This document shows, piece by piece, positions 5,342-56,632 of a DNA stretch of 64,000 nt (position 1 is its first letter; the number at the start of each line of letters is the position of its first letter). Position numbers and translations under genes: made by a program. A model generated the notes under the pieces. The model was not told where the DNA came from. It saw nothing but the letters and a program-made list of their open reading frames with translations, and did not search any database. Source of the stretch: a virus; IMG/VR virus record IMGVR_UViG_3300042691_053605, positions 32,001 through 96,000 of that record, one strand, 5' to 3'.

Positions 5342-5887
5342 TTATTGTAATCTCTTCATTATACGGATGTAGTTGTACTTTAGATTAACTGAGAAATTTC
5401 TGAACTCAGCAGTATTTGAAGCGTAATTTAATTCCAATTCGGAAATTCCGGTCATGGTAATTTGTTGGAAATTAATAGCCACAAATTCAAACCCAGTTTG
5501 ATCTAAAAAAGAAACTGTAAGTTCTGGCAAATACTTCTCTTTGTTATCCAAGTCCCAATACGCAAACATCTGATCAAAGAAAATCCAGTAGTTAATCCAG
5601 CCTTCATATGATTTTAGACTAAGCGTAATTGAACGATCTAAATACCTCTCAATTCTTTTACCGCCTTTTGCAGTTACGGGTTCTTCATATAGTACCTGTT
5701 CTACCGTTTCTGCGTTTAGCGATGGAAAGGTTACCGCTTGAATACTTGCACTCATATAATCCGCTACACTTTCATAAGGCTGTGGCAAACGCTTCAAATA
5801 CGTGGTATACTTATCTACAATTGATGGATAAAAAAAGTTTTGCGGAAAGCGTATAACAAAATTGTTATTTTTACTATTGAGTATCAT
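5342..5887 (-). CDS. Tail tube-fold protein (T4 gp3/gp19-like)
   Basis: IQAVTFPSL, ITLSLK...NYWIF and ISELELNY...FSVNLKY pattern of tube/terminator proteins; 181 aa. Confidence 0.6.
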   Translation of the reverse strand: MILNSKNNNFVIRFPQNFFYPSIVDKYTTYLKRLPQPYESVADYMSASIQAVTFPSLNAETVEQVLYEEPVTAKGGKRIERYLDRSITLSLKSYEGWINYWIFFDQMFAYWDLDNKEKYLPELTVSFLDQTGFEFVAINFQQITMTGISELELNYASNTAEFRNFSVNLKYNYIRIMKRLQ

Positions 5888-22941: not shown

Positions 22942-25900
22942 TAGCTAGTTAGAGACTTTATTGTATTTTTGCTGTAGGTAATGTTTTCTCGGGTTTTAAC
23001 TAGAGATGTTTGTATTTCATCTACTCGTTGTGCCAAAGATTCGCGTTTGTAAGTTGCTTTTACTGCTACATCAAAAGAAAATACAGTGGTGTCTTTTACA
23101 TAGATATCTATCCCGATCTTTTTTGAGTAATTCAATTGTGAAGGCGGTGTCCAACCAGGAGTTGAATCGTATCCACCAACATATCCGGTACCAGTTCCTG
23201 TGTTATCACCGGCAAAATCGGTCATTCTGAATTGGTAAATGATAGGCACCTGAATAGCATTTGATTCACCGGTACCTACATCCTTAACGGCTCGATAATC
23301 GGTTCCATCAACCAATAATTGGTCAAACGTTGCAGGCGCTACAAAAAGATATGATCCACAAGTGTTTTTTCCTATCAAATACCTGTCATTATCGGTAAAT
23401 CCAAATTTATCTGGCATCTCATTAATAAGAGGAGTATACGGAGCAACCATTGGGAACGGCCCGTTTACTGACCAGTTATTTTGGTATCTTAATTGTTGAT
23501 AGCCTTTTTCTCCTGCGTTAAAATTGTAGGAATGCCTAAATGCACTAACAGATTCCGGCGCCTCAGGATAACCTTCTGCATTTACCGTTGTGATGGTAGG
23601 CTGCTGAAGAGATGCCAAGGTAGGTGAACCTGATGAAATTGCAGGATGAGCAACGTGAATACAAAAATTAGAAAGAGTACCATTTCCATTAGGAACCCCC
23701 GCAGTATATCCTCCGCTCCATACGTAATTGGTAGTTCCAGCAGAAGGAGTATTTGGAGTTAAATGACGTGTATTTCCTGATGGAGGATCCATATACAGAG
23801 GATTTGCTAAACCAATATCTGTATAGCGGCTGTATAAAAATTGCGATTTTAATTGTCCACTTTGATAAAAAGCGGATGCAATTTTATTTGCATTATTAGT
23901 ATCAGCGTTTGCAACCGAGGTGTTTACTATTGGAACAATATCGTATCTTCTGCTGGTTTGATAATCGGTATCAGTAGAAGATAAACTCACTGGCAAATTA
24001 TCGCCAAGTCCACCCGGGAATCTTGAAACAAGTTCCAGCGTTGCAACAATTGGGTTTTCAATAGAGAGAGTATAAATCTTATTAATAACTGCGCCTCTTT
24101 GAGCGGATGCAGGTAGCAGGGCTACATAATCCACATAATATCCAGCAAAAAGGTTAATGGTAGAACCGGTTTGTATCTCAGTTTTTGATGATGTATCATT
24201 ATCAATCAAATAAACTTTTAGTTCGCCTTTAGCACTTGCGATAGCATTCTGTATCTCTTGAATAGCAGAATCCATAGCTTTTAATTTGTCATATAGAGAT
24301 ATGATCTGCCCGGCCGCATCATAAAAAGACGATGAAATAACATCTGCGCTATGAGCGTAATATTGTTCGCCAGCATTAAATGAGGAACTTAAATGTATGT
24401 CTAATCCTTTTGCATTTAAGTCTTCTTCTAATTGAACTTTTGTAATTTCCTGAGAAGCCTGGTTTAGAGCAATTACTGCTTCATCCTCACCAGTTAGCTC
24501 TTGTGGAAAATCAATAGTTACGATATTAGAGGGTACTGACGTAAGCGGTGATACCGGCCAGCCTGCTTCGGAAACTGATATTACATAAAATTCAACCTTT
24601 TCGCCTTTGCTGATAGGAATATCTACCTGATTGATATTAATAACATCCGGGTTTTCAATGTCTTCAGCGTCCCAAATGTATTTTCCAGTAGAAACATCAT
24701 AACTCTTTCTGCGAATTTCTGATTTGACTTGTACTAGATTTGAAAAACTTGCTCTACGAGTTTCTCCCGTATTTGAAGTGAAATCATACTGTTTGGTATC
24801 AGAAGCGTTTCCAGCTGGATTCACATATCGGTAATACACATAAAATTGTACAACTTCCTGGAACCCGGTCTTTTCCGTAAATTTAGGTGTAGGTATGTTA
24901 AAGAATCCACGAACTCTATACTTAGGACTATCAAGGGCAGCAGGCTTATCAGTGGTTGCAGTATTTAATTCTTTTACAATACTTGCATACAGTGAAGACT
25001 GGCTGGCTTTTTCACGGATAAGAGATTGCAACTCGTTTTGTACACCGCGTCTTTCAGTTGTTGATGAAAAATTGGTAGTGTTTAGCTGCTCTTTTTTCTT
25101 ATCAATAGATTCGGTTAACTTATTTATAGTGGACTCAATTCTAACTTTATCAGAAGCCTTTTTTCGAATTGATTCAATCTCTGCTTGATCTAATTTATGT
25201 TGATTAATTTGTACTACCTTAAAATTTGCAGGATCCAAAACGGGAGCATCCGGAGTTAAACCATCAAGTGCAGAAATTACTCCATTTTTTGTTGACGATA
25301 TAAGCTGATTGCCAAAATCCATAACACGAGTTCTATAAAACTCGCCAAGATTTAGTGAGCCTTCTGCCAAATCAATGGTTAAATTGTTCGAATAAAAAGC
25401 AGTTCCAGGCGACCATTTTGTAGAAATAAGATTTGCTTCGTCATTTACATTCTTAAAGAAAACAATCTGTCTTTCGTCAAATCCGACACCTACATTTGCA
25501 AGTTTAGGTGAAAACACTTCGGAATACACTGATACGGTTTCACCTGCTACAAATGGTTCATAGCCTCTTAATCTTTTAACACCTACATATTTTGTAGTAG
25601 GATCAACCTCGGTTACTTCATAAATACTTTCGCCTTTAATTAGTTGATCTCCAATTTTAAGTGTCATGGTATTTGCCTGTACAGACAAATTGTCATTATA
25701 TTGAATAGTGTTAAACAGGTATCTTCTTTTTGTAACCTCGGTTCCGTCCTGAAGAGTTACTTTTTGATCACGGTAGGAAACTACAATAAAATCGCCACTG
25801 TATCTAACAACTGATAGAGGTAAATCCATTATCTCTTCATCTACAAAATACGCATAATTTTTTCTTTGTAGATCAACCAACAAATTAACGTAATCAATAT

Positions 25901-26426
25901 CATTACGGCCAGACAAAGAGGTATCAAAGTAATCAATTATTTCTTGGGTAGAAGCATTTAAGATTAAACGCTTAACTCCAATTTTTGATTCGTTTTGAGC
26001 AATATACTTTGTAACATCAAAACTTACCTTCATGGCAGGTGACATTAGGTTTTCAAAAAACCAATTGTTTTCGGCGGTAAATTTAGATGGCACCGTAACC
26101 GTTCCAATTCGTGGAGGGTCTACCGGTGTTTTAGTCTGAATGATTCTCTTAAAAGTTCCGTCAGGCATTCTGATGTACGCATCAGAATCAAAACCCATTA
26201 AGCTTGTAAGAGTATTATCAATTCTTTGAATTGAACTTTTAATTCCAGAAAAAGAAGGAATTGTATAAGTGCTAGTAGTACCATCGGTATTTTGCGTGGT
26301 GACGGTTATTACGTCAGCGTCCGTGGTTACTGCTTGAGATTGCTTTGCAATAATCTCAAGCGCATTGTTTTGTAGGCGAATAAACTCCGCTAAAACTGTA
26401 GAAAAACTGTTGCTGGTCCCTGCCAT
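22941..26426 (-). CDS. Large virion structural protein with coiled coils (1161 aa)
   Basis: Long ORF in the structural operon, preceded by GATAAATAA. Confidence 0.6.
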   Translation of the reverse strand: MAGTSNSFSTVLAEFIRLQNNALEIIAKQSQAVTTDADVITVTTQNTDGTTSTYTIPSFSGIKSSIQRIDNTLTSLMGFDSDAYIRMPDGTFKRIIQTKTPVDPPRIGTVTVPSKFTAENNWFFENLMSPAMKVSFDVTKYIAQNESKIGVKRLILNASTQEIIDYFDTSLSGRNDIDYVNLLVDLQRKNYAYFVDEEIMDLPLSVVRYSGDFIVVSYRDQKVTLQDGTEVTKRRYLFNTIQYNDNLSVQANTMTLKIGDQLIKGESIYEVTEVDPTTKYVGVKRLRGYEPFVAGETVSVYSEVFSPKLANVGVGFDERQIVFFKNVNDEANLISTKWSPGTAFYSNNLTIDLAEGSLNLGEFYRTRVMDFGNQLISSTKNGVISALDGLTPDAPVLDPANFKVVQINQHKLDQAEIESIRKKASDKVRIESTINKLTESIDKKKEQLNTTNFSSTTERRGVQNELQSLIREKASQSSLYASIVKELNTATTDKPAALDSPKYRVRGFFNIPTPKFTEKTGFQEVVQFYVYYRYVNPAGNASDTKQYDFTSNTGETRRASFSNLVQVKSEIRRKSYDVSTGKYIWDAEDIENPDVININQVDIPISKGEKVEFYVISVSEAGWPVSPLTSVPSNIVTIDFPQELTGEDEAVIALNQASQEITKVQLEEDLNAKGLDIHLSSSFNAGEQYYAHSADVISSSFYDAAGQIISLYDKLKAMDSAIQEIQNAIASAKGELKVYLIDNDTSSKTEIQTGSTINLFAGYYVDYVALLPASAQRGAVINKIYTLSIENPIVATLELVSRFPGGLGDNLPVSLSSTDTDYQTSRRYDIVPIVNTSVANADTNNANKIASAFYQSGQLKSQFLYSRYTDIGLANPLYMDPPSGNTRHLTPNTPSAGTTNYVWSGGYTAGVPNGNGTLSNFCIHVAHPAISSGSPTLASLQQPTITTVNAEGYPEAPESVSAFRHSYNFNAGEKGYQQLRYQNNWSVNGPFPMVAPYTPLINEMPDKFGFTDNDRYLIGKNTCGSYLFVAPATFDQLLVDGTDYRAVKDVGTGESNAIQVPIIYQFRMTDFAGDNTGTGTGYVGGYDSTPGWTPPSQLNYSKKIGIDIYVKDTTVFSFDVAVKATYKRESLAQRVDEIQTSLVKTRENITYSKNTIKSLTS

Positions 26427-42339: not shown

Positions 42340-42617
42340 TAGGTACGCATTCTATGGTTTTTTGGCACTGTATAATTAAACGCCTTTTTAATGCTTCCAA
42401 CAGCATCAATAAGATAAACTAAAAGAGTCTGAAACCGTAAAAAAGTGTATTCTTTACGCGGATCAACTAACATATATTTTGAAATTATCTTTCCCATTAA
42501 ACGATTTTCATAGTCAAATCCTTGGTTTTTTAGCGAGTCCTGCTGATGTATCATCCAATTGTAATAGCTTGGACGATCTAAATGAGGACCGGATTTAGGA
42601 GTTTCTTCTATAATCAT
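42339..42617 (-). CDS. Hypothetical baseplate-associated protein
   Basis: 92 aa, overlapping both gp6-like and gp7-like genes. Confidence 0.6.
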   Translation of the reverse strand: MIIEETPKSGPHLDRPSYYNWMIHQQDSLKNQGFDYENRLMGKIISKYMLVDPRKEYTFLRFQTLLVYLIDAVGSIKKAFNYTVPKNHRMRT

Positions 42618-44314
42618 AAGTTCTTCTTAATGTTAGTTACCTCAGATCTATGAAATTCCATATTAAGATTTCTTGGAGTATCTTTTTTGGAAAATGTAAT
42701 GTTTAGAGTACTGTATTTGCCTGCTTCAATTCCCGGTGAAAAGTATGAGCCAAAACGATTTGCCCAGCCACCTCTAACAATTGCAATTTCACCTTTGCCT
42801 ATAATGATGTCACCAAAATCGTCAAGACCAATATCTGGCTTATTTGAATTGTCAGGGTTCTTTTTGAACTCTTCATTTTTTTCCGACACAAAATATACGT
42901 TTACCGAATCAACGCCTTCTACCGATTCAATTACGGAAATAAGATCCGATTTTGGTATACGATCTCTTCTTCTGCTAGCTAAAAAATAGTCAGAAGTTTT
43001 TGTTATGATTTGCTGCCTAATAACATCTTTATTAAAGCCTTCGTATGCCGTGATATTTGTAAACATTACGTATCTACTAAATATAGGATCAATAATTTTG
43101 TTAACTACAGTCATAAGTTTTTGACCGCTTTTTTCGATCAAATCATATATCTTTGTTTTTTCAATATTGCTGAGCTTAAACAAATCCAGAGGAATGGTGT
43201 AATAATCATCGGAAGATTTTTTTCGCTTGTTTACGTCAGGAATTAAGAAGAGATACACCACATTGTCATCAGTAATATCATCATCATTTAGTGTGGTAAA
43301 CGCATCTATAACTGAAAAGAAATTAAACTTTTGCAAAAAGTAAACATAATTATCAACATTTGCTAAAATGTAGGCTTTACTTGTTTTTGGCGCCAACAGC
43401 TTTGTTAAGAAAATAGGTTCTGCATCAGTTCCAAAATTAATTGGAACCTCCATTTGGATATTTAACGCTTTATTAAGATCTACTTCAGATCCTGCAATAT
43501 CAAACCCTTCATCTAAAAATTTGAAACTTGGAGAGTCGTCCACAATAATGTTTCCAGAGTTTCCGGAGGTAGTTAAGTATTCCACCCGTATTACGGCTCC
43601 TAACGGAGGATTTTTCCCAAAGTAGCCGTTTCCAAAGTAAACGTCGATTCCGGAGTCTATTCCGGTTTTGATGATAACGCCAGGTGTTTCGTACACCATA
43701 TCGTACAGGGACTCGTATTTTGGCCATTCCTCGTTATTTACATATACTTTTACAAAATTGTTGTCAATATTGAAATTCTTTTTTGGCAGTGTTGTAAATG
43801 ATTGCAAAGCCTCACCAGTTCCAGTATACGACTGCGCTTCAATAACGCCTTGTATTACTGATACCTCTATGGAGTTTTTGCCAGATAACTCAAGAGTAAC
43901 TACGTCCTGATCTAAAACTACTGTATAGGTTAAACCGTTTGTTTTACATTGCAACGAAGTATAATTAGGTATGATAACCGAATTACCGTACATATCAAGT
44001 TTTGCTCCACTGTAAGTTAACTTTAATGTACCAGACGCTCCAATAGGTCGGGTAGGATTGTGACCAGCAATACGTGCAAGTCCTCGGATAGAATTGGGAC
44101 GCTGCGCGGTATAAATGTTTAACTCATTTATGCTGTCTTCTATATAGTAAAAAAGAAGTCTTCCAAGATCTAGAATTACTTGTAAAAGCTGACCGTAAGG
44201 ACTTGCAGTGCTGAATACCTGATCTGCTTGTTCATACTTTGCCTGTAAAAAAGTTCTAGCGTCCTGATAGAGTTGCTCAAACGTTATTCTCGTAAGCTTA
44301 AAAATCTCTAACAT
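42614..44314 (-). CDS. Baseplate wedge subunit (T4 gp6-like)
   Basis: TAQRPNSIRGLARIAGHNP, VYFGNGYFGKNP and VEYLTTSGNSGN. Confidence 0.85.
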   Translation of the reverse strand: MLEIFKLTRITFEQLYQDARTFLQAKYEQADQVFSTASPYGQLLQVILDLGRLLFYYIEDSINELNIYTAQRPNSIRGLARIAGHNPTRPIGASGTLKLTYSGAKLDMYGNSVIIPNYTSLQCKTNGLTYTVVLDQDVVTLELSGKNSIEVSVIQGVIEAQSYTGTGEALQSFTTLPKKNFNIDNNFVKVYVNNEEWPKYESLYDMVYETPGVIIKTGIDSGIDVYFGNGYFGKNPPLGAVIRVEYLTTSGNSGNIIVDDSPSFKFLDEGFDIAGSEVDLNKALNIQMEVPINFGTDAEPIFLTKLLAPKTSKAYILANVDNYVYFLQKFNFFSVIDAFTTLNDDDITDDNVVYLFLIPDVNKRKKSSDDYYTIPLDLFKLSNIEKTKIYDLIEKSGQKLMTVVNKIIDPIFSRYVMFTNITAYEGFNKDVIRQQIITKTSDYFLASRRRDRIPKSDLISVIESVEGVDSVNVYFVSEKNEEFKKNPDNSNKPDIGLDDFGDIIIGKGEIAIVRGGWANRFGSYFSPGIEAGKYSTLNITFSKKDTPRNLNMEFHRSEVTNIKKNL

Positions 44315-44328
44315 TGATAGTGTTTATG

Positions 44329-44691
44329 TTATTTTGCAACCAGGCCAAAGGCCTTGGATCCATTAACATATATATCAATGTAGGCTAAATCCCTGACAGT
44401 TCCCGGGACAAAATTTACTTCAATCTTTAAGTCAAAATAACCCGCCTCTGTGACATAAGCGGCTACTTGTTCATCAAATTTTCTCTTTAACTCATTTGCG
44501 CTAAACCCAAATTCAAAAAGCAAGTCCTCTAAACTTAAACCAAAATTAGGATCACCTAAAATATCCCCTTTTCTGGTAAAGAGAATCATTTTAATTTTTT
44601 GCAAAAGAGTTTTAACCGAATCGCGCTCATCAATTTTATTCGGTTCATAACCAGGTTCAAGCTGGTTAATTATGTAGAGTTCTTTAAGCAT
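44329..44691 (-). CDS. Baseplate/sheath initiator (T4 gp25-like)
   Basis: ILFTRKGDILGDPNFGLSLEDLLFE. Confidence 0.85.
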   Translation of the reverse strand: MLKELYIINQLEPGYEPNKIDERDSVKTLLQKIKMILFTRKGDILGDPNFGLSLEDLLFEFGFSANELKRKFDEQVAAYVTEAGYFDLKIEVNFVPGTVRDLAYIDIYVNGSKAFGLVAK

Positions 44692-45775: not shown

Positions 45776-45881
45776 TTTTCAAAGCTTTCAAAATTTCAAG
45801 ATTTGCCTGCATTTGCTTTCTTTTTTTAGATGCATTTGCACGATTTCTCCATTTAGGATGCGCCTTATGAGACTTAGCCAT
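45762..45881 (-). CDS. 39-aa highly basic peptide
   Basis: Manual translation MAKSHKAHPKWRNRANASKKRKQMQANLEILKALKNETR; its ATG overlaps the amidoligase stop (TAATG); not in the ORF track. Confidence 0.55.
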   Translation of the reverse strand: MAKSHKAHPKWRNRANASKKRKQMQANLEILKALKNETR

Positions 45882-47302
45882 TATTTCTTTTCTTTCTTTT
45901 TATCCTCCTTGTCGGATTCTTTAGCACCTTTTTCAGCATTTTTATAGCTTCCAGATGCTTCGGTTGGTTCAATTTGTTCAACAATAAGAGTTTCTTTTGA
46001 TACCTTTGCAAGCTTTCCAACTTCTCCGTTACGAATAACACCACGGTTAACTTCACAATTGATAATGTTTGTTTTGTTTTCAATAAAACAATCATTTAGA
46101 ACATTTCCTACGTGTAACGGGCATTCTGCAACTTTTGAAAAGTTAACGGTATTTCCTTTTGAAAATGTACAAAAGGTTAGTCGGCTATTTTTTATTTCGC
46201 AGTTGTAAAAAGTTCCTCTTTCAACTACACCTTCAATTTCACAGTTAACAAATTCCATGTCAATTAAACGGCAATTTCTAAGTTTGCTATCTTTTAACTG
46301 AAATGTACCAATTTCAGAATCATAATTAAATTCGCCTTTTTCCATTCCGCCGGTCATAATAACCTCAAAGAGTTTATCTCTTAAATTTGCCCAAACACTT
46401 TCAATGACTTCATTATCATCATTCATATCAAGTGTTACCTTAATCTTTGGGAACGCTTGTTTGAAATGGCAGTACTTTACAAACCCTTCAGCAATTTTAT
46501 TTTGCTTCTTTACCAGTTTTTCCAATTCACGTTTTTCACCGCTAGTATATTCTACAAAATTAAGAGTAGCGTGCATATGCTGAATAAAATACTCAATCAA
46601 ATCCAAAATTTTCTTGGTTTTCTTTTCATAGTCAGCGCCTCCCATATAACGGTATTCCAAATAGCCTTTTTCTAATTTGGTAAAGTTAACACCGTAATAC
46701 TTTTCGGCAGGGGTTGCAAATGTTTGTTTGCTGTAAACTGAGCTGTTAGGTGAAACAAAGAAATTTGCTTTATTGGCACGAATTTCACGAATACTTCTTG
46801 CATATACAGAGTCTTTTCTTTTTGGAAAAACACTGTATACACGGTCCTCGTCAAATGAAAGTATAAATTTTAGAACATTTGTATCTTTAATGTCAAATAA
46901 TGTAGGTAATTTAACCGGATCAATAGAAACATTGGCATGTATTGAGCATCTCTCGTTTGTATAACCATTGTTACTTATCCATTCAAACATTTTTATGATA
47001 ATGTTACGGGCTTCCGTATATTTCATAGGACCGGTTACCAACTCACACATGGTAAGTCCACCGGAATAATCTGGCTCCAATTTGAAAACGCTATCAGTTG
47101 GCTGGATTGGCGAATGATAAAGAGGCTTTGGCTTATTAATATCACCAAGCGCGTACGGTACAACTACGCGTTTTCCAATAAACTTGGAAATTGAACGTGC
47201 AGTTTCCTGTACATCTTTAAAGTTTGAATAGAATTCAAATTCAATTCCAACTTTACCGGCTTCCAGAACCTCTTCTGGGCGATAGCTTTTCTTAATCTTC
47301 AT
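45881..47302 (-). CDS. Putative amidoligase (COOH-NH2 ligase) with C-terminal beta-helix
   Basis: VGIEFEF, EPDYSGG..CELVTGP, CSIHANVS, KYYGVNF and LEYRY motifs; C-terminal NC(E/R)(I/L/V)-type short repeats. Confidence 0.75.
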   Translation of the reverse strand: MKIKKSYRPEEVLEAGKVGIEFEFYSNFKDVQETARSISKFIGKRVVVPYALGDINKPKPLYHSPIQPTDSVFKLEPDYSGGLTMCELVTGPMKYTEARNIIIKMFEWISNNGYTNERCSIHANVSIDPVKLPTLFDIKDTNVLKFILSFDEDRVYSVFPKRKDSVYARSIREIRANKANFFVSPNSSVYSKQTFATPAEKYYGVNFTKLEKGYLEYRYMGGADYEKKTKKILDLIEYFIQHMHATLNFVEYTSGEKRELEKLVKKQNKIAEGFVKYCHFKQAFPKIKVTLDMNDDNEVIESVWANLRDKLFEVIMTGGMEKGEFNYDSEIGTFQLKDSKLRNCRLIDMEFVNCEIEGVVERGTFYNCEIKNSRLTFCTFSKGNTVNFSKVAECPLHVGNVLNDCFIENKTNIINCEVNRGVIRNGEVGKLAKVSKETLIVEQIEPTEASGSYKNAEKGAKESDKEDKKKEKK

Positions 47303-48506
47303 TTGGGATGGTCAAGAAAATTTTATCGTTGTGTACTCTGTCTACAGTTACCATAACCTTCTCACCTACAACGTATTTTTTCTTTTTATTTTTTGTTTCT
47401 TTTTGTGAAATAAGTCCTACAATATCTTTTTGAAGTTTTACCAATGTACCGAACGGCTGAATTGATACAACTTCACCACCTGTAATTACTCCAAGATTCT
47501 TTTCTTTGAAATCCTCAATTTCTTTCATGCGAATACTGGGATCTTCATCGGTAAGTATAATCTTTTTGTCAGCAGTAATTTCTTTAATCCAGAAAGAGAT
47601 TTCTTCGCCGGCTTTGAATTTGCCTTCTTTGAATTCTTCACGCATTGCGGGTGTCATCTTACTTGTATGAATCAATCCTGTGAAGATTTCGCTAAATTCA
47701 ACAAAAATACCAAACTTAGCAGTTCCAGTAATAGTACCTACATATTTTTCAGTAGTACTAAGGCTTTCAATTTTTGAAGGTAAAATGTAGTTCAAATACT
47801 TTTTATGGCTAAATACAAAGGCACCTAAATCTTTTAGGTAATCTTCTACCATTACAGCAACTTCTTTGCCTAACATGGAATCAAAATCCCTAACTACGTT
47901 GGCAGCAGCAAGCGAACCTGGTAAGAACCCTTCTACGCCATTTACGTTTACAAGGAATCCACCTCCGTTTCTGCTAATTATTTTTGCATAATAAGCATTT
48001 GTAGGTTTTGCAATTTGTTCAAAGAATTCTCTGCGAATACCATCAGCATATCCTTTACTTAAGGAGGCAATAGTAAACGGCTTAATAGTTTCAATTGTAG
48101 CTTTTCTGTTAGCGTTTGCTACAAAAGCGTCGCGTGAACCTTCCTGTTGCATCCATTCGTAAAAAGAATGCTGGTCCATTTCGATATTTCTGAAAAATGG
48201 CTTTTCCTTTTCTAATTGAATAACCGCTTCCACCATTCCTGAGAGGGTAACTACCATCTCTTTTTCATTGATACTTACAACAGATACAATGGATCTGCAT
48301 TCACCAATTTGAGGTTCTTTTGCGTTTTGCGGTAAGGCTTTTTCGTACGCTAAAAACGCGTCCTCCGCGCCAGCGTCGTGTCTCCATACACTAGCACTGT
48401 ATTTTGCTAGTATATCTTTGTTTGGAACTCTCTTCATTCGAAGATCCTCAGCAACTGCCAGGTCCCAATCAAAGTCTACAATTTCTGTGTTATTTTTTAT
48501 TTGCAT
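47292..48506 (-). CDS. Ribosomal protein S1-like multi-S1-domain protein
   Basis: S1 repeats GGFLVNVNGVEGFLPGS, GTITGTAKFGIFVEF...GLIHTS and GEVVSIQPFGTLVKL...GLIS. Confidence 0.85.
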   Translation of the reverse strand: MQIKNNTEIVDFDWDLAVAEDLRMKRVPNKDILAKYSASVWRHDAGAEDAFLAYEKALPQNAKEPQIGECRSIVSVVSINEKEMVVTLSGMVEAVIQLEKEKPFFRNIEMDQHSFYEWMQQEGSRDAFVANANRKATIETIKPFTIASLSKGYADGIRREFFEQIAKPTNAYYAKIISRNGGGFLVNVNGVEGFLPGSLAAANVVRDFDSMLGKEVAVMVEDYLKDLGAFVFSHKKYLNYILPSKIESLSTTEKYVGTITGTAKFGIFVEFSEIFTGLIHTSKMTPAMREEFKEGKFKAGEEISFWIKEITADKKIILTDEDPSIRMKEIEDFKEKNLGVITGGEVVSIQPFGTLVKLQKDIVGLISQKETKNKKKKYVVGEKVMVTVDRVHNDKIFLTIPNED

Positions 48507-48538: not shown

Positions 48539-49108
48539 CTACTTAATGCCACCAATAAATACTACTGGTATTTTTGCGGCAGCAATCGCATCGGGAACGG
48601 AAAACGTAGGTGAAAGCGTAAGTTCAATAGGAACCGGATTTAGAATAGCGGAAGCTCCGACTCCAACTGTAAGAGTTCCCGGTGGTATCGTTACCACTAA
48701 ATCCGCGCGTTTTATATTTGTAACTATAATATCGGCTAATAGAGGTGAAAGCTGCGCAACCAGTGCTTTTACAATATCAGAAGAAATATGTGCGGATAGG
48801 CAATCTGCCCACTCGGCAGCAACAACAGTCCACAGCTGATTCTTAAAGTCTACACGTTTTTGGACAGTGTCAAGATTTCCCGGTGCATTTTCAATTGCCC
48901 ACTTATCAATGGCTTCTTGCACCGAAAACACGCTGTTTTTTGTATTTTCTACAACTCCGCCTAAACGTTCGTCTTCGTCAACGCCTAATGCGGTATGTAA
49001 AGGTAGCGGATCTGCAAAGTGTGCAAGAAGAGAAGCCTTTATTGTTGGCTCCAGTGACTGAAACGCTGCTGCTAATTCAGTAGCTAACAGAGGTGTGTTT
49101 AATGGCAT
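48539..49108 (-). CDS. Hypothetical protein downstream of the spike gene
   Basis: 189-aa ORF in the baseplate operon. Confidence 0.6.
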   Translation of the reverse strand: MPLNTPLLATELAAAFQSLEPTIKASLLAHFADPLPLHTALGVDEDERLGGVVENTKNSVFSVQEAIDKWAIENAPGNLDTVQKRVDFKNQLWTVVAAEWADCLSAHISSDIVKALVAQLSPLLADIIVTNIKRADLVVTIPPGTLTVGVGASAILNPVPIELTLSPTFSVPDAIAAAKIPVVFIGGIK

Positions 49109-49118
49109 ATTTTATTTT

Positions 49119-49859
49119 TTAGATTGTTTTAACTACAGGCAAACCAGTTTTGCCACTTAAATGTTGTACAGGAGTCATGGGTATAACTGGTGGAGACGTG
49201 GGAGCTCCCATATTTCCAATATGTGTATGAGAATTAAAAAGAGCCAGAAATGAATCCCCTAATACCACTCTTTCAATTGCTCCTGCACCTAATTCGACGG
49301 TATTTGTATGATCAATTATTACGTTTTTTGTAGTAACATTAACAGAGTCTTCTGCATATATGTTAATTCGCGGCCCGATTAACTCAATTACGCTTTTACT
49401 CTCTTTGTGTTCAATTGTAATACTGCTATCTGGGTTAACTATAATTTGCGATTCCTTATGAAATAAATTAAGACCTTTTCCTGGAGTGTAAAAGATTTTT
49501 ACCTGCTCATCCTCATCATAGAGCAATACATGGCTTCCTAAATAACTATCAGAAATTTCTGATTGCATTGCTCGATTAATTGTTTGAATGCCATAATACT
49601 CGGGAGAGTATAAATTTCCTTCTGAAAATTGTATTCTTACAATTGCTCCTATTTTAGGAATCGATAGTGATCCAAATCCGCCTTCGCCTCCTGCAAATAC
49701 GGTATTTGTGACAGGAAAAGCCCACGGAATTGCATCATTTTCAAGCTCATCAAATAAACTAAATACTTTTATTCGGCATCTACCAAGCTGTTCAGGATCG
49801 TTGTTTTCTACAACTTCGCCTAACCAAATTCGATCTCTTAGTTCTTGTGTTGATGGCAT
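49119..49859 (-). CDS. Baseplate central spike (gp5/gpV-like OB-fold, no lysozyme domain)
   Basis: WLGEVVENNDPEQLGRCRIKV, IPKIGAIV; C-terminal HTH(IGNMG) metal-binding tip motif. Confidence 0.85.
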   Translation of the reverse strand: MPSTQELRDRIWLGEVVENNDPEQLGRCRIKVFSLFDELENDAIPWAFPVTNTVFAGGEGGFGSLSIPKIGAIVRIQFSEGNLYSPEYYGIQTINRAMQSEISDSYLGSHVLLYDEDEQVKIFYTPGKGLNLFHKESQIIVNPDSSITIEHKESKSVIELIGPRINIYAEDSVNVTTKNVIIDHTNTVELGAGAIERVVLGDSFLALFNSHTHIGNMGAPTSPPVIPMTPVQHLSGKTGLPVVKTI

Positions 49860-49860
49860 A

Positions 49861-52371
49861 TTATTCTAAATCTACGTTTCCTAAATTTGCTTTAACTTCG
49901 TCGGTTGGCGGTGCGGTTAAATCTACAGATCCTTCGGAAGCCTTTGGTTTAATCGGTCCTGTTAGAGGAACTTCTACCGATGATATTTTTTCTGGCGCGG
50001 GAGGCGCAACCAATTTAACTGGTGCTAACGGCTTTTTACTTGTTTCAGGGCTTTCAAAATTAACTTCACCTAATTTTGGGTTTGCTGGATTTGACGCCTC
50101 CAAATCAGTACGGCCAGGATCTTTATCACTTGGCTGATAACCGGCTAAAACAGTTTTTCCAGGCGTTACTGCTGCTGGGCCAGCTCCTTCAAGATTTGTA
50201 GATCCTGGTTTAGCCGAAGAAATTCCTGCACTTTGAAACTCGGTGGACCCAGGATTAATTGCAGATACTGAAGCTCCTGACAAGTTAACAACCATTGGTT
50301 TATCCGAAGAAACTGTTGGTTCTACCAATTCAACTTTTGTAGAACCTGACTGGCCAGGCGCTGCTCCTTCTAAATCTGAACTTCCAAGAGTTGCATCTTT
50401 CTTTGGCGCAGAATTCAAATCAACCGTAGTACCAGAGATATTACCTGGGTTTGCTCCGGTTAATTGAACACTAGTTGCAGAAGAATTTCCTGTTGGTGGA
50501 GCACTTAAATCAACCTTTGTACCTGATACTGATACCAAATTTGGTGCGGATAATTCTACACCAGAAAGAGCTCTTGGAGCAATTGCCGGTCCGGAGAGTT
50601 CAACAGCCGATGGGCTGCTAGGCGGAGTATTATCAGGACCAAAATCAACTTTAGAAGACGAAGCAGCGCCTACAGGAGGCGATTGCAAATTTACAGTGGA
50701 AGACTGCGCTGGAGATACGGTAGGTCCACTCAATTGAACTTTTCCACCACCGCCTGACGGTGCAGCTGCACCTTCTAACTGAACTGCAGAAGAACTTGCC
50801 GCATTTATAGTAGGGGCGGACAGAGTAACTGGTGAAACATTTGATGAATTTTCTGGTGGAGCCTGAAGTTCTACGCTTGAAGATGAAGCGGAACCTATAT
50901 TAGGACCACTTAATTCCGTATTTGTAGGACTTACCACAGAAGAAATTGCGCTCTGAACCGAGGTTAATTCAACTTGTGCAAGCGATTGAGTAAGTATTTC
51001 AGGCGCTTGTAAAACTACTTGTTTTGCAATGTTTTGTGAAACCTTTGGCTCAAATGCGTTTGAAAATACTCTTCCAATAACCCGTGCTGCTAAATCGGCT
51101 GCTAAATTGTTTGCTGCGCCAACTGCTATATTTTCAGCCTGTTCTGCAAGTCTACCCAATAAGCTAGAATTTCTTTCATTTTCTGCTTTTAACAAATCCT
51201 GATGTTTTGTTTGATCACGCAAATTGTTAAAAGAAGAATTCTTAATTCCTAAGAGATAACCAATTTCACTTGAAGGAATTCCTGCGTCATTTGCATCATT
51301 ACCAGTCTTTTTCCAAAACAGCGAATCCACTTTTGAATCATTTCTTTCTGACGCAGTTGGCGTATCTTGTAATATTGCTCCAAGAAGGCCATACGTATTT
51401 GATTCCCGGATAATCGGAGTTGTAATTGTAATTTTGTTGGTCGCCTCTTTTTCCGGAGTTTTTGCAATTGAGTCAAAATAACTCGGTGAATCCTCTTCTA
51501 TTGAAAACTGACATCCTGAAAAAGAAAACACCATAAAAGTAGCCAATGAATCAAAATTTTGCATTAACGTAGGGAACGACGAAAACTTTCCAGGGTCTCT
51601 TTGTAAAGCATCGGTTAATGTATTACTTAGAGCAGTTGTTGCCTGACTTGTTGGTAGCACCGCGTTAACTGCTGCCTGAATTCCTTGTTCAGCCAGCCCA
51701 GGTATGTTTATATTACCAAATAGACCAGTATCAAGAGGATTCTTATATGAATTCATCGACTGCGCAATATTTCGGTCATTCGTAGGAACCACTAGATCTG
51801 CAGGTCTTTGCATACTCCTAATTTCGGTAATTACAAGATCCATATCAAACCACCTTAAGTTTTCTGGCAAAATCCATCGCATATGAACAGAATCAAAGGT
51901 TGCCTTTCGGTATAAATCCATCAAATATGTAATCTTTAAGTCAATGGATTCAAGGGTTTCAAATGAAAGCTTTTTATCTTTACCGCGAAAGCTATTTCCT
52001 GGAGCAATTTTCCAAATTTCAGCAAGACCACTTACCTTTGTAAAAAACCAAGGAGTTTTTTCAGAAATATCTTTTAGCCCGGCAATAAATTCCCTAACCA
52101 TCTGTGCTCGAGTGTATTCGCCAATTCTTTTCAAATAACTAATAGCAGAATCAGGATGATCTTCAGAATATAAAAGTCCTCCTGGCCAGGTATCAAGACT
52201 TGGCTGTCCGGTAGGTAATTCGTTAAACCCATAAAATTTTAGGTAGAACCCAATATATGTAGGATCTTCATAATCCGCAAATTTTGAAGGGCGCTGTGTT
52301 GCATACGCGGATCGCCATGCTGGTGATGACTGCTCTAAAAATGACCGTGTAAGTGAATCAGCAAATTTCAT
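49861..52371 (-). CDS. Tail tube initiator-like (gp54/gp19 fold) protein with a C-terminal 15-aa repeat array
   Basis: N-terminal LSFETLESIDLKITYLMDLYRK and FSFSGCQF tube-like pattern; about 26 V-x-L-x-[GAS]-[PA] repeats. Confidence 0.55.
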   Translation of the reverse strand: MKFADSLTRSFLEQSSPAWRSAYATQRPSKFADYEDPTYIGFYLKFYGFNELPTGQPSLDTWPGGLLYSEDHPDSAISYLKRIGEYTRAQMVREFIAGLKDISEKTPWFFTKVSGLAEIWKIAPGNSFRGKDKKLSFETLESIDLKITYLMDLYRKATFDSVHMRWILPENLRWFDMDLVITEIRSMQRPADLVVPTNDRNIAQSMNSYKNPLDTGLFGNINIPGLAEQGIQAAVNAVLPTSQATTALSNTLTDALQRDPGKFSSFPTLMQNFDSLATFMVFSFSGCQFSIEEDSPSYFDSIAKTPEKEATNKITITTPIIRESNTYGLLGAILQDTPTASERNDSKVDSLFWKKTGNDANDAGIPSSEIGYLLGIKNSSFNNLRDQTKHQDLLKAENERNSSLLGRLAEQAENIAVGAANNLAADLAARVIGRVFSNAFEPKVSQNIAKQVVLQAPEILTQSLAQVELTSVQSAISSVVSPTNTELSGPNIGSASSSSVELQAPPENSSNVSPVTLSAPTINAASSSAVQLEGAAAPSGGGGKVQLSGPTVSPAQSSTVNLQSPPVGAASSSKVDFGPDNTPPSSPSAVELSGPAIAPRALSGVELSAPNLVSVSGTKVDLSAPPTGNSSATSVQLTGANPGNISGTTVDLNSAPKKDATLGSSDLEGAAPGQSGSTKVELVEPTVSSDKPMVVNLSGASVSAINPGSTEFQSAGISSAKPGSTNLEGAGPAAVTPGKTVLAGYQPSDKDPGRTDLEASNPANPKLGEVNFESPETSKKPLAPVKLVAPPAPEKISSVEVPLTGPIKPKASEGSVDLTAPPTDEVKANLGNVDLE
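49864..51020 (-). repeat. Protein-level tandem repeat with 15-residue period
   Basis: VELQAP/VTLSAP/VQLEGA/VQLSGP/VNLQSP/VELSGP/VELSAP/VDLSAP..., mostly spaced exactly 15 aa apart. Confidence 0.85.
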
Positions 52372-52386: not shown

Positions 52387-53910
52387 TTATACCGGTGTCG
52401 GCCATTCTCTACGTGTTAAGTAAACCTTATGTATAAAACCTGGCGGATTTCTTGGATTTTCTTCTGTAGGCATACCCATTGATGAAATAGGACTATCTTG
52501 CGAATATGAAAACGACATTCCAGCTATCATATAATAGCCACTGTAGAATCTATCCAATATCATGCTAGGGTACATTGCATCAGGTTGTTCCTGTTCAGGC
52601 GAATTAAGTATTGTTTGGTGACGAATGTCATTCATTACAAATAATATCAATGGAATACGTTCACCCCGGTAGAGATTAAAATTGCCTCTTTCAAGATCAA
52701 TATTAATTGTAATTTTTTCCAATTCTACATTATTTCGATCATTCCAAAGCTTTGCATAATTGTATTTTTCATGTGCATTGCCTTCGGGCGCGGTATATTG
52801 AATTCCCATCCACACATGACGAGCCTGTGTTTTCCAATAGTCTTCAGACGGCGTTCCGGGTTTTGTAGTACGGCCTTTTAGAATAATTTTGTTCCCACCA
52901 GCGCCTTCAGTATTTAGAGGATCCACATAGATTGACCAGTATTGTTCAGAGTTTTGCTCAAAAAACTGTGTGTATGTTTTATACCCATAAGCCTGACTTA
53001 CCTGGTTACTCTTATTACTTACGTTGTACCGGTGTATAAACCCAGGAGTTCCTTTATAGTCGGGCCAGTTTGTTAAAATTTTGGAAGTTTGTCCCGTAAG
53101 TTCGGTTAGCTGTTTTTCTGTAGTTTCGCCTCCCATTGTATCGGTAATTCTTAAATTGGTTAAAAGCGCCAAATCTACATTAGTGTCTTCGCTAAATTGA
53201 TTATTGATATTTACAAAATTTAGATTGTAATACACATCAATAAATACGTCAAAGAAGCTTTGCTCGTCCTTCCAGGCATGATCCGCAATAGATAATATGT
53301 ACTCACGGTAATCTGTTCTTGGACTTATCCAGGTTTGCTCATCCGCTGTTGCAGTATCGTTGGAGGCAAAACCTAATTTAAGTTCTCTAGCAATTTCTTT
53401 TAGAACATTATAGCTGGTTCCTTTATAGGAAACTACAACCTCATCATATAAATGAGGAACAAACAATTCACCGTTAATTGTATAAGCTCCGTACATACCT
53501 TCGGAATCTGCGCCTTTACTCGTTACGCTTGTAATTCGATAATCATTTCGTATTGGCTTAAAGGTGTCATTTAATGCACGAATAAAAACAGAGGCAAGAT
53601 CACCATCTTTGGGAATTGCTCCAGACGGAAAAGTTTTCCCTTTTACAAATACCTTAAAACTTACTTTTGGCAAAAACCCAGTATAATCAATGCTGAAATT
53701 CAAAATTTCATCCTGATTAAAGACATAGTTATTAATTTCAATATACGGAAAGTTGGTACCTACGTTCTTTGTCTCTTTGTAATCCCGCGGTTCCCCTTCC
53801 ATTGAGGAATTCTTATTTGTACCATAGTCAGCATCGTATATTTCAATACTGTCCAACGGTATTGCTGGATCCATCAAAGACCGTATAATTGCCTTTTCGT
53901 TTTGTGGCAT
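52387..53910 (-). CDS. Baseplate hub protein (gp27-like)
   Basis: SYNVLKEIARELKLGFASN and LDRFYSGYYMIAGMSFSY hub-like motifs; position between gp53-like and gp5-like genes. Confidence 0.6.
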   Translation of the reverse strand: MPQNEKAIIRSLMDPAIPLDSIEIYDADYGTNKNSSMEGEPRDYKETKNVGTNFPYIEINNYVFNQDEILNFSIDYTGFLPKVSFKVFVKGKTFPSGAIPKDGDLASVFIRALNDTFKPIRNDYRITSVTSKGADSEGMYGAYTINGELFVPHLYDEVVVSYKGTSYNVLKEIARELKLGFASNDTATADEQTWISPRTDYREYILSIADHAWKDEQSFFDVFIDVYYNLNFVNINNQFSEDTNVDLALLTNLRITDTMGGETTEKQLTELTGQTSKILTNWPDYKGTPGFIHRYNVSNKSNQVSQAYGYKTYTQFFEQNSEQYWSIYVDPLNTEGAGGNKIILKGRTTKPGTPSEDYWKTQARHVWMGIQYTAPEGNAHEKYNYAKLWNDRNNVELEKITINIDLERGNFNLYRGERIPLILFVMNDIRHQTILNSPEQEQPDAMYPSMILDRFYSGYYMIAGMSFSYSQDSPISSMGMPTEENPRNPPGFIHKVYLTRREWPTPV

Positions 53911-54527
53911 TAAGAATTAGATTTTTGATTGTTCTTTAAGAGCTTTGATAAAAATTCAGTTTTTGATAGAGGAGCATTTACCTCATTTGAATTTTTACTT
54001 ACCGCACTTCCAAAATAAATTTTGCCTCCTTTGATTTCAATTTCCTTATCACCAAAATTAGCAAAGTTTGGTGGTAACGGAGGCGTGGTTTTACTGGGAT
54101 CTGCTTTTTTAGGCTTATTACGATTATCAAATTTACCTAGCGTTGGATCCAGTTTTGAAATTTTCTCAGGATCAATATACTGGTTACGGATATCAAATTT
54201 TTGCTTTTCTGCGGCAGTACCAAACTTCATATTTATGTTTGCGTAAATTGGATCCGGCACAAACAGCAAATCACCCGTGTCAATTGTAAACGGATTGCTT
54301 ATATCGTTAAACTTTAGCATCTTTTCAGTTTGTGCGGTGGATCCCATTGAAATTTTAGTAATGGAATCAATACGCATAGCCAAATCTTCTGTTACTAGCA
54401 CATAATTGATCATTGGTTGATCCACCGTAATGTTCATTGATTGTTGTGTCAAATCTACAATCTGATCACCGTTTTCTAGCTGAATAATCGGCTTATTGTC
54501 AATTGTTGCAGGAAATTCTATTGGCAT
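53910..54527 (-). CDS. Baseplate wedge LysM-like protein (gp53-like)
   Basis: RIDSITKISMG...MLKFNDISNPFTIDTGDLLFVP. Confidence 0.7.
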   Translation of the reverse strand: MPIEFPATIDNKPIIQLENGDQIVDLTQQSMNITVDQPMINYVLVTEDLAMRIDSITKISMGSTAQTEKMLKFNDISNPFTIDTGDLLFVPDPIYANINMKFGTAAEKQKFDIRNQYIDPEKISKLDPTLGKFDNRNKPKKADPSKTTPPLPPNFANFGDKEIEIKGGKIYFGSAVSKNSNEVNAPLSKTEFLSKLLKNNQKSNS

Positions 54528-54531
54528 TTAA

Positions 54532-56571
54532 TTAGGCTTTTTTGTTATATCCAAGTCCCCATTTAGCAGCAGTACTGCTATATGTCTTGGTTGCGGTTTG
54601 CGTTACTGTATTAATTGCATTATCCACAGCAGCAGGATCTCCAAGTAGCGCAGATCTTCTATAAAATTTACCTCCAGGTTTGCGAGTTCCAGTATTGCCT
54701 TCTCCACCGCTTCCTTTGTTTTTTCCGGTATACGCATCCACTTTTGTCATACTTGCTGACGAAATGTTTTGCTCATACCCAGGAGGCAAAGAATATAAAC
54801 GGCCGCCACCTGCGTTAAACATGGATTCAATTGCATCGCGATCTCGTGGTCTTCCATGTGCCAATGTTATTGTTGCTTTGATTTCTGTAGGAAAATCATC
54901 AGGCCCAAGCTCATCATTAAATTCAATTTTTGCATTTTCACAAATAAGATTGCCGATCATCATCATTGGATTAAACGGATTGCCTACCATTAAATGCCAT
55001 TCACCAACAGGTTCTCCAGTTAAAATTGCTTTAATTCCGGTTACAAATCCTGGTTGTGAAGTCACGGTTGATTTCATATAGTTGCTTCCCATTCCAGCAG
55101 CAAGAGACTTAATTGCGTCAATAGGATTTTGAACCGCGGAAAACAAAAAATCACTTACCGCGCTTGCTGCCTTTGAAAATTGTGAAGCTACTGAATTCAT
55201 AAAGGCCCCGGGATCACCTCGTAACCAGGCAGCACGTCCCGCTTTCCCTCCAAGAAACGGAGCAGCATTTCCAGGCGCTCCTGGCCTAAAACGGTTAGCC
55301 CCGCCCCAGAATGTTGCGGACGCAGAAGTCAATAAGAGTAAATTTGACATAATATCAAGCATTGCTGCTTTAGCGTTTATACCTCCAATACTTCGAGCAG
55401 AATACTCAAAAACCAGGGTAATTTTATGATCAAATTTAAGTCCGCGCTCTCTCATTTTTACCGAGTCAATAACATTTATTGGCCCGATAATTTTATTTTG
55501 CCAAGGCCCATCGGTATACGGATCAGGGGGCGCACCTCTTTGAGCCTGTTGTTCATCTCCACCACGATAATCTCCCGAAATAAGTCCTAACCACTTTGCA
55601 ACTCCAGGAACTGGACCAGCGCCTGCATCACCAGGCTCTGCAGGTGATACCACATTCATTTCTGATTTGAGGTCTTTCCAATTTAATCCTGTTTCAATAG
55701 GACCAAGAATGGTAGATATTTTATTTCCAGTATCTTCTCCAAGCCAGGTAACAGCGGTAGCCACTGGACGAAGCTTTGTAGTATCAAAAGGATTGTCTCC
55801 CTTTGGATTTTTTTCGCCATCGGCCTCTAAATTATCTGCAGTAGGAAACGGATATCTTCTAAGAGTTACTAAATAATTGTTAGGAATTAATTGCCACCAT
55901 TTGCAATAAGCAAAATCCTGAAACCTATAAGGCATTCTATCACGATTCTTTTCTTCCTGGCTCCACTCTACTAATTGAGTTACTGTAGGCGATTTGTACC
56001 TATGTCCTCTTTCAGCGTTATATTGATCAACTTCGTACCACCTTGGCTGGTTTTCCTGATCCATTAAAAGTGACATGGCATTTGCATCCTTGGTAGCAGT
56101 AAATTGCTGAAAACTTATATACGCATTAGGGTTCATAATTGACGGAACCCCGCCAAATTCTTTTAACTCTGAATACGCCGACAGATCTTTTATGTTTTGC
56201 GCGGACACCTTTTGCGAATCGCTTTGATTAGGATCCTCGGGAAGAACAAAGCCTTCAACAAGAGGCTCAACGGCTTCTGCGCTAAAGCTTAAAAGTGTTG
56301 AATTTTTTGAATCCGAAATAAAAATAAGTCTTGGATCATGCGGCCCCATCATTAAAGGTGGTTGCCCAGGAGTTGCTTCTTGCGTTACCGACGTATTGTT
56401 TTGTGGTTCCAGCGGTTTTGGAACATACAATGCTACGTTATCAATAAGAAAATCTACATTTGAATCCTCTATCACAAATTGATCAGGTACTCCGACTCTT
56501 TGAAGCGGATCCAGATAATTGTAATAAACAAACGGGTCTTCTCTCTTAATAAAAATGTAAACTAATGCCAT
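54532..56571 (-). CDS. Baseplate/tail tube cap protein (gp48-like); likely start MALVYIF
   Basis: ITLVFEY and VGNPFNPMMMIGNLICENAKIEF...GPDDFPTEIKATITL tube-fold C-terminal motif. Confidence 0.55.
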   Translation of the reverse strand: MALVYIFIKREDPFVYYNYLDPLQRVGVPDQFVIEDSNVDFLIDNVALYVPKPLEPQNNTSVTQEATPGQPPLMMGPHDPRLIFISDSKNSTLLSFSAEAVEPLVEGFVLPEDPNQSDSQKVSAQNIKDLSAYSELKEFGGVPSIMNPNAYISFQQFTATKDANAMSLLMDQENQPRWYEVDQYNAERGHRYKSPTVTQLVEWSQEEKNRDRMPYRFQDFAYCKWWQLIPNNYLVTLRRYPFPTADNLEADGEKNPKGDNPFDTTKLRPVATAVTWLGEDTGNKISTILGPIETGLNWKDLKSEMNVVSPAEPGDAGAGPVPGVAKWLGLISGDYRGGDEQQAQRGAPPDPYTDGPWQNKIIGPINVIDSVKMRERGLKFDHKITLVFEYSARSIGGINAKAAMLDIMSNLLLLTSASATFWGGANRFRPGAPGNAAPFLGGKAGRAAWLRGDPGAFMNSVASQFSKAASAVSDFLFSAVQNPIDAIKSLAAGMGSNYMKSTVTSQPGFVTGIKAILTGEPVGEWHLMVGNPFNPMMMIGNLICENAKIEFNDELGPDDFPTEIKATITLAHGRPRDRDAIESMFNAGGGRLYSLPPGYEQNISSASMTKVDAYTGKNKGSGGEGNTGTRKPGGKFYRRSALLGDPAAVDNAINTVTQTATKTYSSTAAKWGLGYNKKA

Positions 56572-56587
56572 GCAAACATTTATTTTA

Positions 56588-56632
56588 CTATATATCAAAG
56601 GTTATCCCAAAATGATTCTCTTAGATATATAG
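56588..56632. promoter_or_regulatory. Divergent pair of class A motifs (GATATATAG on both strands)
   Basis: CTATATATC at 56588-56596 and GATATATAG at 56624-56632, each about 17 nt from a start codon. Confidence 0.65.

Follow-up and report, generated by a model that had tools for sequence, protein, structure and literature searches.

A probable gp54-like tail-tube initiator with a strictly periodic C-terminal extension in an uncultured jumbo myophage

What is a long, strictly periodic protein tail doing in the baseplate hub module of a contractile-tailed phage, and does it count out the length of the phage tail? The question is raised by a gene at positions 49861-52371, minus strand, of a window of 64,000 nucleotides (bases 32001-96000 of the 142.9-kb IMG/VR contig IMGVR_UViG_3300042691_053605, here called G000, which is rated ~50% complete). 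A single open reading frame (ORF) at this site encodes a protein of 836 amino acids (P0001), and the plus strand across the same interval is closed. A preliminary description of the sequence had suggested a tube initiator whose repeats might serve as a segmented ruler. Our best overall explanation, to which we give a probability of roughly 0.6, is that the gene encodes a gp54-type initiator with a multivalent periodic tail that does not set tail length.

The 836-residue protein, its repeat array, and its family

The array comprises 26 units of 15 residues that occupy residues 452-836 (385 amino acids; window positions 49864-51018, minus strand). It is acidic and rich in Ser, Pro, Gly, and Ala, and each unit is built around the anchor V-x-L-x-[GAS]-[PA], in which the second position is usually one of E, D, N, or Q (V-[EDNQ]-L-x-[GAS]-[PA]). 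The consensus of the whole unit is s-[PSL]-[SG]-[SK]-V-[EDNQ]-L-[SEQ]-[GAS]-[PA]-P-x-x-x-x. The protein has [VT]-x-[LF] anchors at residues 452, 467, and 485, then every 15 residues from 500 to 785 (20 units), and finally at 801, 816, and 833. Twenty pairs of anchors are separated by 15 residues and 17 by 30 residues, whereas lags of 5 to 14 residues give no pair. When these 385 residues were shuffled 5000 times, pairs at +15 averaged 0.07 and never exceeded 2, compared with the 20 observed. In the repeat region the hydrophobic autocorrelation has its maxima at 15 and 30 rather than at 5.

By composition the array is 17% Ser, 12% Pro, 11% Ala, 9% Gly, and 1% aromatic, with a net charge of -15 (-17 to -46 for the tails of close relatives). 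Both the ~26 strictly periodic repeats over the C-terminal ~385 residues and the low-complexity Ser/Pro/Gly/Ala-rich character given in the preliminary description are thus confirmed, the former by the anchor list and the shuffle test and the latter by composition. Tandem Repeats Finder detects no DNA-level tandem repeat in the array region, so the array is an old one, maintained through its protein sequence. The protein ends in the motif KANLGNVDLE-COOH (49864-49893, minus strand), the counterpart of the C-terminal ends of other family members.

Two further regions precede the array in the full-length AlphaFold2 model, which was built from a 66-sequence alignment. The first is a predicted tube-fold domain at about residues 25-350 (51322-52299, minus strand), with cores at residues 40-190 and 280-350 that have a predicted local distance difference test score (pLDDT) of 85-98. 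The second is an Ala-rich linker at about residues 360-465 (50977-51294, minus strand), predicted to form helices at 367-415, 424-436, 442-454, and 458-464 and containing a family-wide internal motif, here IGRVF (432-436).

We compared the N-terminal domain with known structures using VIA-align. The top match is 9f4a_BQ (Z = 9.6; root-mean-square deviation 3.6 Å over 180 residues), the Klebsiella phage KP1 homolog of T4 gp54 (phmmer E = 1.5e-129). High scores are also obtained against 5iv5_BG, a chain of the T4 baseplate-tube complex (Z = 9.4), and against the tail tubes of phages phiKp24 (Z = 9.1) and phiKZ (Z = 8.3), and dozens of chains with Z of 6-7.5 are T4 gp19, Hcp, and tube proteins of contractile injection systems. 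Foldseek by itself gave weak matches. In BFVD, the matches are first uncharacterized family members only, then a "baseplate tail tube protein" and tail-tube proteins.

Sequence comparisons give no such signal: Pfam and PHROG scans of the 836-residue protein return no family match, a PDB sequence search with it is empty, and hhalign of the family profile gives a probability of <1% against T4 gp54 and gp48 and is negative against gp29. The model indicates that the N-terminal part has a tube fold, nearest to that of the gp54 tube initiator, and the "tube-initiator-like" label of the preliminary description is supported on the same structural grounds (the KP1 gp54 homolog as best match, the T4 baseplate chain, and the jumbo-phage tubes). 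An initiator is a tube-fold ring in the baseplate hub that provides the platform for tube polymerization.

The protein shares with T4 gp54 and its KP1 homolog (PDB 5iv5, 9f4a, 9f4b) the tube-type fold, a gene located in the hub module near the hub and spike genes, and a low-complexity C-terminal tail, which in T4 is ~66 residues long, rich in Ser, Gly, and Asn, and has hydrophobic anchors. However, there is no detectable sequence similarity, and the proteins differ in size (836 vs. 320 residues), the tail here reaching 385 residues in 26 phased units. The gene orders also differ: 27-28-29-48-54 in T4, compared with 48-like, a 205-residue protein, 27-like, 54-like, and 5-like here. We found no described counterpart in the literature of a tube initiator with a 385-residue phased array.

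Relatives of the protein number 67 in a set of 5.8 billion proteins, and a scan of viral contigs yielded 396 related viral loci. By tblastn, the N-terminal ~190 residues are found in cultured jumbo myophages, namely Sphingomonas phage PAU, Tenacibaculum phages PTm1, PTm5, and pT24, Chryseobacterium phages MA9V-1 and MA9V-2, Flavobacterium phage MaF61, and the Lak phages. The source of the window is an uncultured jumbo myophage of the lineage that includes Chryseobacterium MA9V, Sphingomonas PAU, Tenacibaculum PTm1, and the Lak phages.

Repeat number is clade-specific and ranges from 0 to ~40 within this one syntenic family. The proteins of PAU (413 residues), MA9V-2 (417), and MaF61 (435) have no units, and neither do that of a Lak-size (482 kb) uncultured relative (443-444 residues) and those of many other relatives (400-520 residues). 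Intermediate forms of ~650-700 residues have seven to 14 units, long forms of 800-990 residues have 21-34, and the members of a sister clade (1022-1285 residues) have ~27-40.

Among the 20 closest homologs, which are 36%-45% identical, repeat spacings of 15 residues occur 432 times, spacings of 16 occur 46 times, of 18 14 times, and of 14 eight times. The 15-residue spacing makes up 432 of ~520 short spacings, at sequence identities of ~25%-45%. In one sub-clade the tails are all 468-472 residues long and nearly without indels, with tail identity down to 36%-44%. This retention of period and the near absence of indels indicate that spacing and total length are under selection; the view that selection acts on length, which the preliminary description had put forward from the freely diverging spacers, is therefore supported.

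The arrays are confined to this gene family: a position-specific scoring matrix scan of all fetched loci was positive in no other ORF, and a phmmer search with the tail against 1.84 billion representatives returned 47 proteins, all of them either members of the family or canonical pentapeptide-repeat proteins. In the sister clade the unit has 16 residues, PSNADLTGAQPLKDLV, and many near-identical copies lie in runs (L081:8553-12191, L053:9998-13831, and L065:3522-6587), which points to recent unit duplication, in contrast to the old and diverged 15-residue array of the window.

Two short motifs recur across the family. An internal motif with consensus LLGNVYGFSP is kept in all clades, including the short forms (PAU and metagenomic relatives), and an extreme C-terminal motif, LGN[VI][YF]xx-COOH or LGK[AT][DN]L(E)-COOH, is present in most clades (C-termini of ~80 members); the short cultured forms end in NIYGQS or NIYRQ. 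The repeat anchor resembles both the internal and the terminal motif, and the array thus looks like an amplified docking motif.

Tape measure genes and tail length

The reading of the array as a repeat-counting tail ruler supposes that each 15-residue unit spans one tube ring of ~4 nm and that the array replaces a helical tape measure. The geometry is suitable, as 15 extended residues can cover ~40 Å, and within sub-clades both the period and the overall length are kept. The hub module is also without a tape measure gene, which the preliminary description had used as an argument. This absence holds for the window. In the G000 contig (~50% complete), no tape measure protein (TMP) gene was detected by PHROG scans of the large ORFs, by a crude screen for helices and hydrophobic segments, or by a search with the TMP of G001, its nearest large collinear relative.

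As an argument, however, the absence fails. The left end of G000 aligns with ~70 kb of G001, where the TMP-like gene is at 30-37 kb, and the window lacks a TMP because the half-complete contig stops short of the module that encodes sheath, tube, and TMP. Furthermore, searches with phrog_1283 (T4 gp29) and PF10145 are empty in five relatives, including the complete genomes of the cultured phages MA9V-2 and PAU; since these profiles miss the TMP even there, a failure to find one carries no weight.

Two large collinear relatives show what such a module contains. In G001 (202 kb) the gp54-like protein has 949 residues and ~31 repeats, and in G002 (238 kb) it has 521 residues and no repeats. Both encode a sheath (1316 residues in G001 and 1260 in G002; phrog_34521, E = 8e-99), followed by a 187-residue tube protein (phrog_3629, E = 5e-4), a protein of 315 or 333 residues, respectively, and then a long TMP-like protein of 2234 residues in G001 (L113:11073-17777) and 1136 residues in G002 (L099:7608-11018). 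The TMP-like proteins are marked by an N-terminal coiled coil, by 10-25 hydrophobic segments rich in Ala, Gly, and Leu, and by ~100-residue internal repeats.

The cultured phage MA9V-2 has a gene of this kind, MA9V2_061 (1082 residues; L130:10401-13649), at the same position after its annotated sheath gene. Its product matches the G002 protein (BLAST E = 2e-36) and phrog_4372, "tail length tape measure protein" (E = 9.6e-7). The three proteins (1082-2234 residues) are annotated as hypothetical. Contractile tails of 166 nm and 170 nm are reported for MA9V-2 (PMC13414440) and MA9V-1 (PMC10537231), respectively. A protein of 1082 residues over a tail of 166 nm gives 1.53 Å per residue, the canonical ratio. 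The TMP-like family is probably the tape measure of this jumbo-phage lineage. The "missing tape measure" argument is thereby corrected, and a probable TMP can be named for the lineage that is a hypothetical protein in the MA9V-2 annotation and fits the measured tail.

The number of repeats does not follow tail length across these relatives. Repeat-free members of ~400-520 residues hold the same syntenic slot, and one of them, the 417-residue protein of MA9V-2, belongs to a phage that still has a 166-nm contractile tail, whose length the conventional TMP explains. The TMP of G001 predicts ~85 tube rings, compared with ~31 repeats, and G004 combines a 1942-residue TMP with no repeats at all. The slot after the sheath and tube genes in G001, G002, and MA9V-2 is held by a separate helical, hydrophobic protein, and the repeat region itself shows neither predicted helix nor hydrophobic stretches, with Pro at 12%.

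There is a weak rise of gp54-like protein length with TMP length over 10 genomes (Spearman's correlation 0.69, P = 0.026; 0.58, P = 0.10 without G001; no phylogenetic correction), which we take as a weak hint worth following and not as support for a ruler. A ruler made of 15-residue segments is, in our judgment, very improbable, and the proposal of the preliminary description is not supported; the relatives show what that description had itself named as grounds for refutation, a conventional TMP encoded elsewhere that explains tail length. We are confident of the two statements taken together, that the protein has gp54-type initiator identity and that it is not the ruler.

The comparison with TMPs (T4 gp29 and lambda gpH; phrog_4372 and phrog_1283) has some basis: the initiator tail is a long, length-conserved, nonglobular chain at the hub end of the phage tail, and its size differs stepwise between clades of the family. 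Unlike TMPs, however, it is nonhelical, has no hydrophobic or transmembrane segments, is encoded outside the TMP slot, and is joined to a tube-fold domain; nor does its length follow that of the phage tail, and the relatives have a separate TMP-like protein. YscP and FliK, the rulers of the injectisome and the flagellum, offer a conceptual parallel only, as extended and partly repetitive chains whose length can be read by a growing tube. These are unrelated systems, and length control here falls to a separate tape measure.

Physical state of the repeat tail and its possible role

The two AlphaFold2 predictions for the repeat region differ. Folded alone, from a 24-sequence alignment, the tail is predicted to be disordered (mean pLDDT 41.6), without secondary structure. 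The full-length run places one five-residue strand in each unit, with pLDDT 55-70. This stack of strands, together with the strict period without indels that is typical of solenoids, would fit a folded beta-solenoid or beta-helical rod in which units stack with one coil per 15-16 residues, alone or as a trimer or hexamer. Such a stack would form a rod of ~12 nm, a plug, needle, or fiber akin to pentapeptide-repeat helices.

The relation to pentapeptide-repeat proteins (e.g., Caulobacter phage RW gp016) needs separate consideration. The anchor, V-[DE]-L-S-[GA], is like a single A(D/N)LxG pentapeptide, and library-wide searches give weak but significant matches to pentapeptide proteins (phmmer E = 1e-8 to 1e-3; tblastn E = 7e-7, the match in Caulobacter phages being to a pure (A[DN]LSG)n protein). 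These E-values are inflated because the alignments repeat a single short motif in register. One pentapeptide in three is recognizable in the array, which has no contiguous A(D/N)LxX units at period 5 and, with AlphaFold2 giving disorder, no predicted quadrilateral (four-sided) beta-helix. No Pfam pentapeptide match was obtained in any of 66 family members (E up to 0.01), and the 16-residue unit of the sister clade is not a multiple of five. We therefore treat the pentapeptide resemblance as motif-level similarity.

With just two conserved hydrophobic residues per 15, 12% Pro, and 1% aromatic residues, and with complete disorder predicted for the tail alone, a stable monomeric solenoid is unlikely, and a folded rod of the kind described above we also regard as unlikely.

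The opposite extreme is a tail without any defined structure. Six acidic, floppy chains might fill the baseplate end of the tube beside the TMP and act as a plug, a lubricant, or a leash extruded at infection, with no site-specific periodic binding and with the period a mere trace of array growth. The negative net charge, in this tail and in those of close relatives, and the predicted disorder agree with this, as does T4 gp54, whose C-terminal ~66 residues are of low complexity, the matched T4 chain 5iv5_BG being modeled only to residue 254. The C-termini of the T4 TMP, moreover, have been located in the hub and the distal part of the tube (PMC12929629; bioRxiv 10.64898/2026.03.06.709160). However, if only bulk mattered, one would not expect 432 of ~520 spacings to be exactly 15 at ~25%-45% identity in tails that are nearly free of indels; this argues for selection on spacing, not bulk, and leaves the polyanionic chain a rather improbable account.

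The initiator with a multivalent periodic tail, the reading that we prefer, would work as follows. A short docking motif may have been amplified to give the array, and six multivalent tails would extend from a hexameric initiator ring. The units would serve as short beta-strand "stickers" at a fixed pitch, each with V-x-L and then Gly/Ala-Pro. The likeliest partner would be an adjacent repeating lattice, that is, the first tube rings, or else the contents of the lumen, and the tail could thus act as a nucleating clamp or a liner of the baseplate-proximal tube. Tail length itself would be set by a conventional, hydrophobic and helical TMP, whose gene would follow those for sheath and tube in the stretch of genome missing from the contig. 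We hold the lattice-binding mechanism as tentative and less likely than not.

Several observations weigh against this reading of the protein. Assignment to gp54 is by fold, with no support from Pfam, PHROG, or hhalign, and Z scores of 9-10 exceed those of ordinary tube proteins just modestly. The one-strand-per-unit stack of the full-length model leaves room for a folded solenoid. The TMP gene is known from relatives, the contig of the window phage itself being incomplete. Finally, the C-termini of tube-fold proteins are usually on the outer surface of the tube.

A more specific form of lattice binding is that each of the six tails follows one protofilament, with one V-x-L strand per tube subunit over the first ~26 rings. 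Such a lattice-matched peptide could run inside or outside the tube and would template or staple its baseplate-proximal part. We consider it doubtful; if true, it would be a second length-registered element beside the TMP, of a kind undescribed for contractile tails. We also considered the tail as a tether between the baseplate and the tip of the tube during the contraction stroke, which we rejected since the length fits only G001 and fails for the short forms.

Tube initiators are regarded as compact adaptor rings. The family described here has an evolvable, strictly periodic C-terminal tail, with 0 to ~40 copies of the unit; with 396 viral loci, the family is large and widespread among jumbo phages of Bacteroidota and relatives. 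If the units engage the tube lattice, they would represent a new way to nucleate or stabilize long contractile tails, as well as a natural case of a multivalent peptide that matches a helical polymer.

The hub module and other observations

On the minus strand, the genes of the module run in the order gp48-like candidate, 205-residue protein, hub-like 507-residue protein, the initiator-like gene, and a 246-residue gp5/VgrG-type protein with an OB fold; the same order is found in nine relatives on other contigs. After the OB spike gene come a small ORF, an S1-domain protein, an amidoligase-like protein, a gp13-like protein of 243 residues, a gp25-like protein, and a gp6-like protein.

The downstream neighbor (49119-49859, minus strand) is assigned as the spike by a match to PF04717 (E = 5.3e-8, above the cut-off) and also matches phrog_37871 and phrog_430 (baseplate hub and tail lysozyme). 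The upstream neighbor (52387-53910, minus strand) is a candidate hub protein of the gp27/gpD/Mu gp44 type. It matches phrog_35886, a family of unknown function, is syntenic in all relatives examined, and has an ESM Atlas lead (score 0.95) to clusters with 26%-28% Phage_GPD members, or 94% GpP-like; profile comparisons with T4 gp27 and with PDB sequences found nothing. The position between hub and spike genes given in the preliminary description is largely correct, with a domain match on the spike side and, on the hub side, the language-model lead, the profile comparisons being empty. The gene nevertheless lies in a baseplate-hub setting, flanked by the gp5 OB gene and, by that lead, a hub-like gene, with gp25-like and gp6-like genes downstream.

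The 205-residue protein (53910-54527, minus strand) has no family match and no known function but is syntenic in relatives. The gp48-like tube cap candidate (679-688 residues; 54532-56598, minus strand) comes from an ESM Atlas lead (score 0.88) to a cluster with 22% PF11091 T4_tail_cap members; it has a conserved globular core, and hhalign and PDB sequence searches with it are negative. Farther downstream, the gp25-like candidate for a baseplate wedge or sheath-initiator protein (44329-44691, minus strand) matches phrog_261 and phrog_43 (baseplate wedge subunit), and the gp6-like baseplate wedge protein (42614-44314, minus strand) matches phrog_219 (E = 1.2e-31).

The ORF directly after the gp5 OB spike gene is the sole wildly variable slot among the syntenic relatives, ranging from 96 to 1626 residues (sizes of 96, 121-137, 189, 896, 1114, and ~1625). 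It lies at 48539-49108 in the window and at L013:13620-18491, L028:12730-15420, and L081:13010-16354 elsewhere, and may encode an exchangeable spike tip, central fiber, or effector. The next two genes of the window encode a protein with multiple S1 domains (47292-48506; PF00575, E = 5e-16) and, at 45881-47302, an amidoligase-like protein whose pentapeptide match is weak. Both are kept in the baseplate module at seven of nine loci, an odd site for such domains.

Elsewhere in the window, a 747-residue ORF (5891-8134) was considered as a sheath gene and rejected: it has no family match, and the true sheath, of 1260-1316 residues in relatives, lies outside the G000 contig. It adjoins a 181-residue gp19-like ORF with a tube fold (5342-5887; PF06841, 17.6 bits, below the cut-off), which is 80% identical in G001, lies far from the sheath-tube module, and is also next to a RuvC-like gene. 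Because the 747-residue neighbor is not the sheath, the 181-residue protein is a second tube-fold protein and cannot clearly be taken as the main tube; it possibly serves as a gp3-like tube terminator or as a second component with a tube fold.

A 1161-residue ORF (22941-26426) was likewise rejected as a tape measure. It encodes a conserved protein of mixed alpha/beta type (phrog_29329, E = 3e-144), homologous to PAU gp264 and MA9V2_184, both of which adjoin a neck-protein gene, and is a candidate large conserved virion protein. In G001, a 1466-residue collagen-like tail-fiber protein (L114:14711-19111; phrog_6320, E = 1e-151) is encoded between the portal and head-closure genes.

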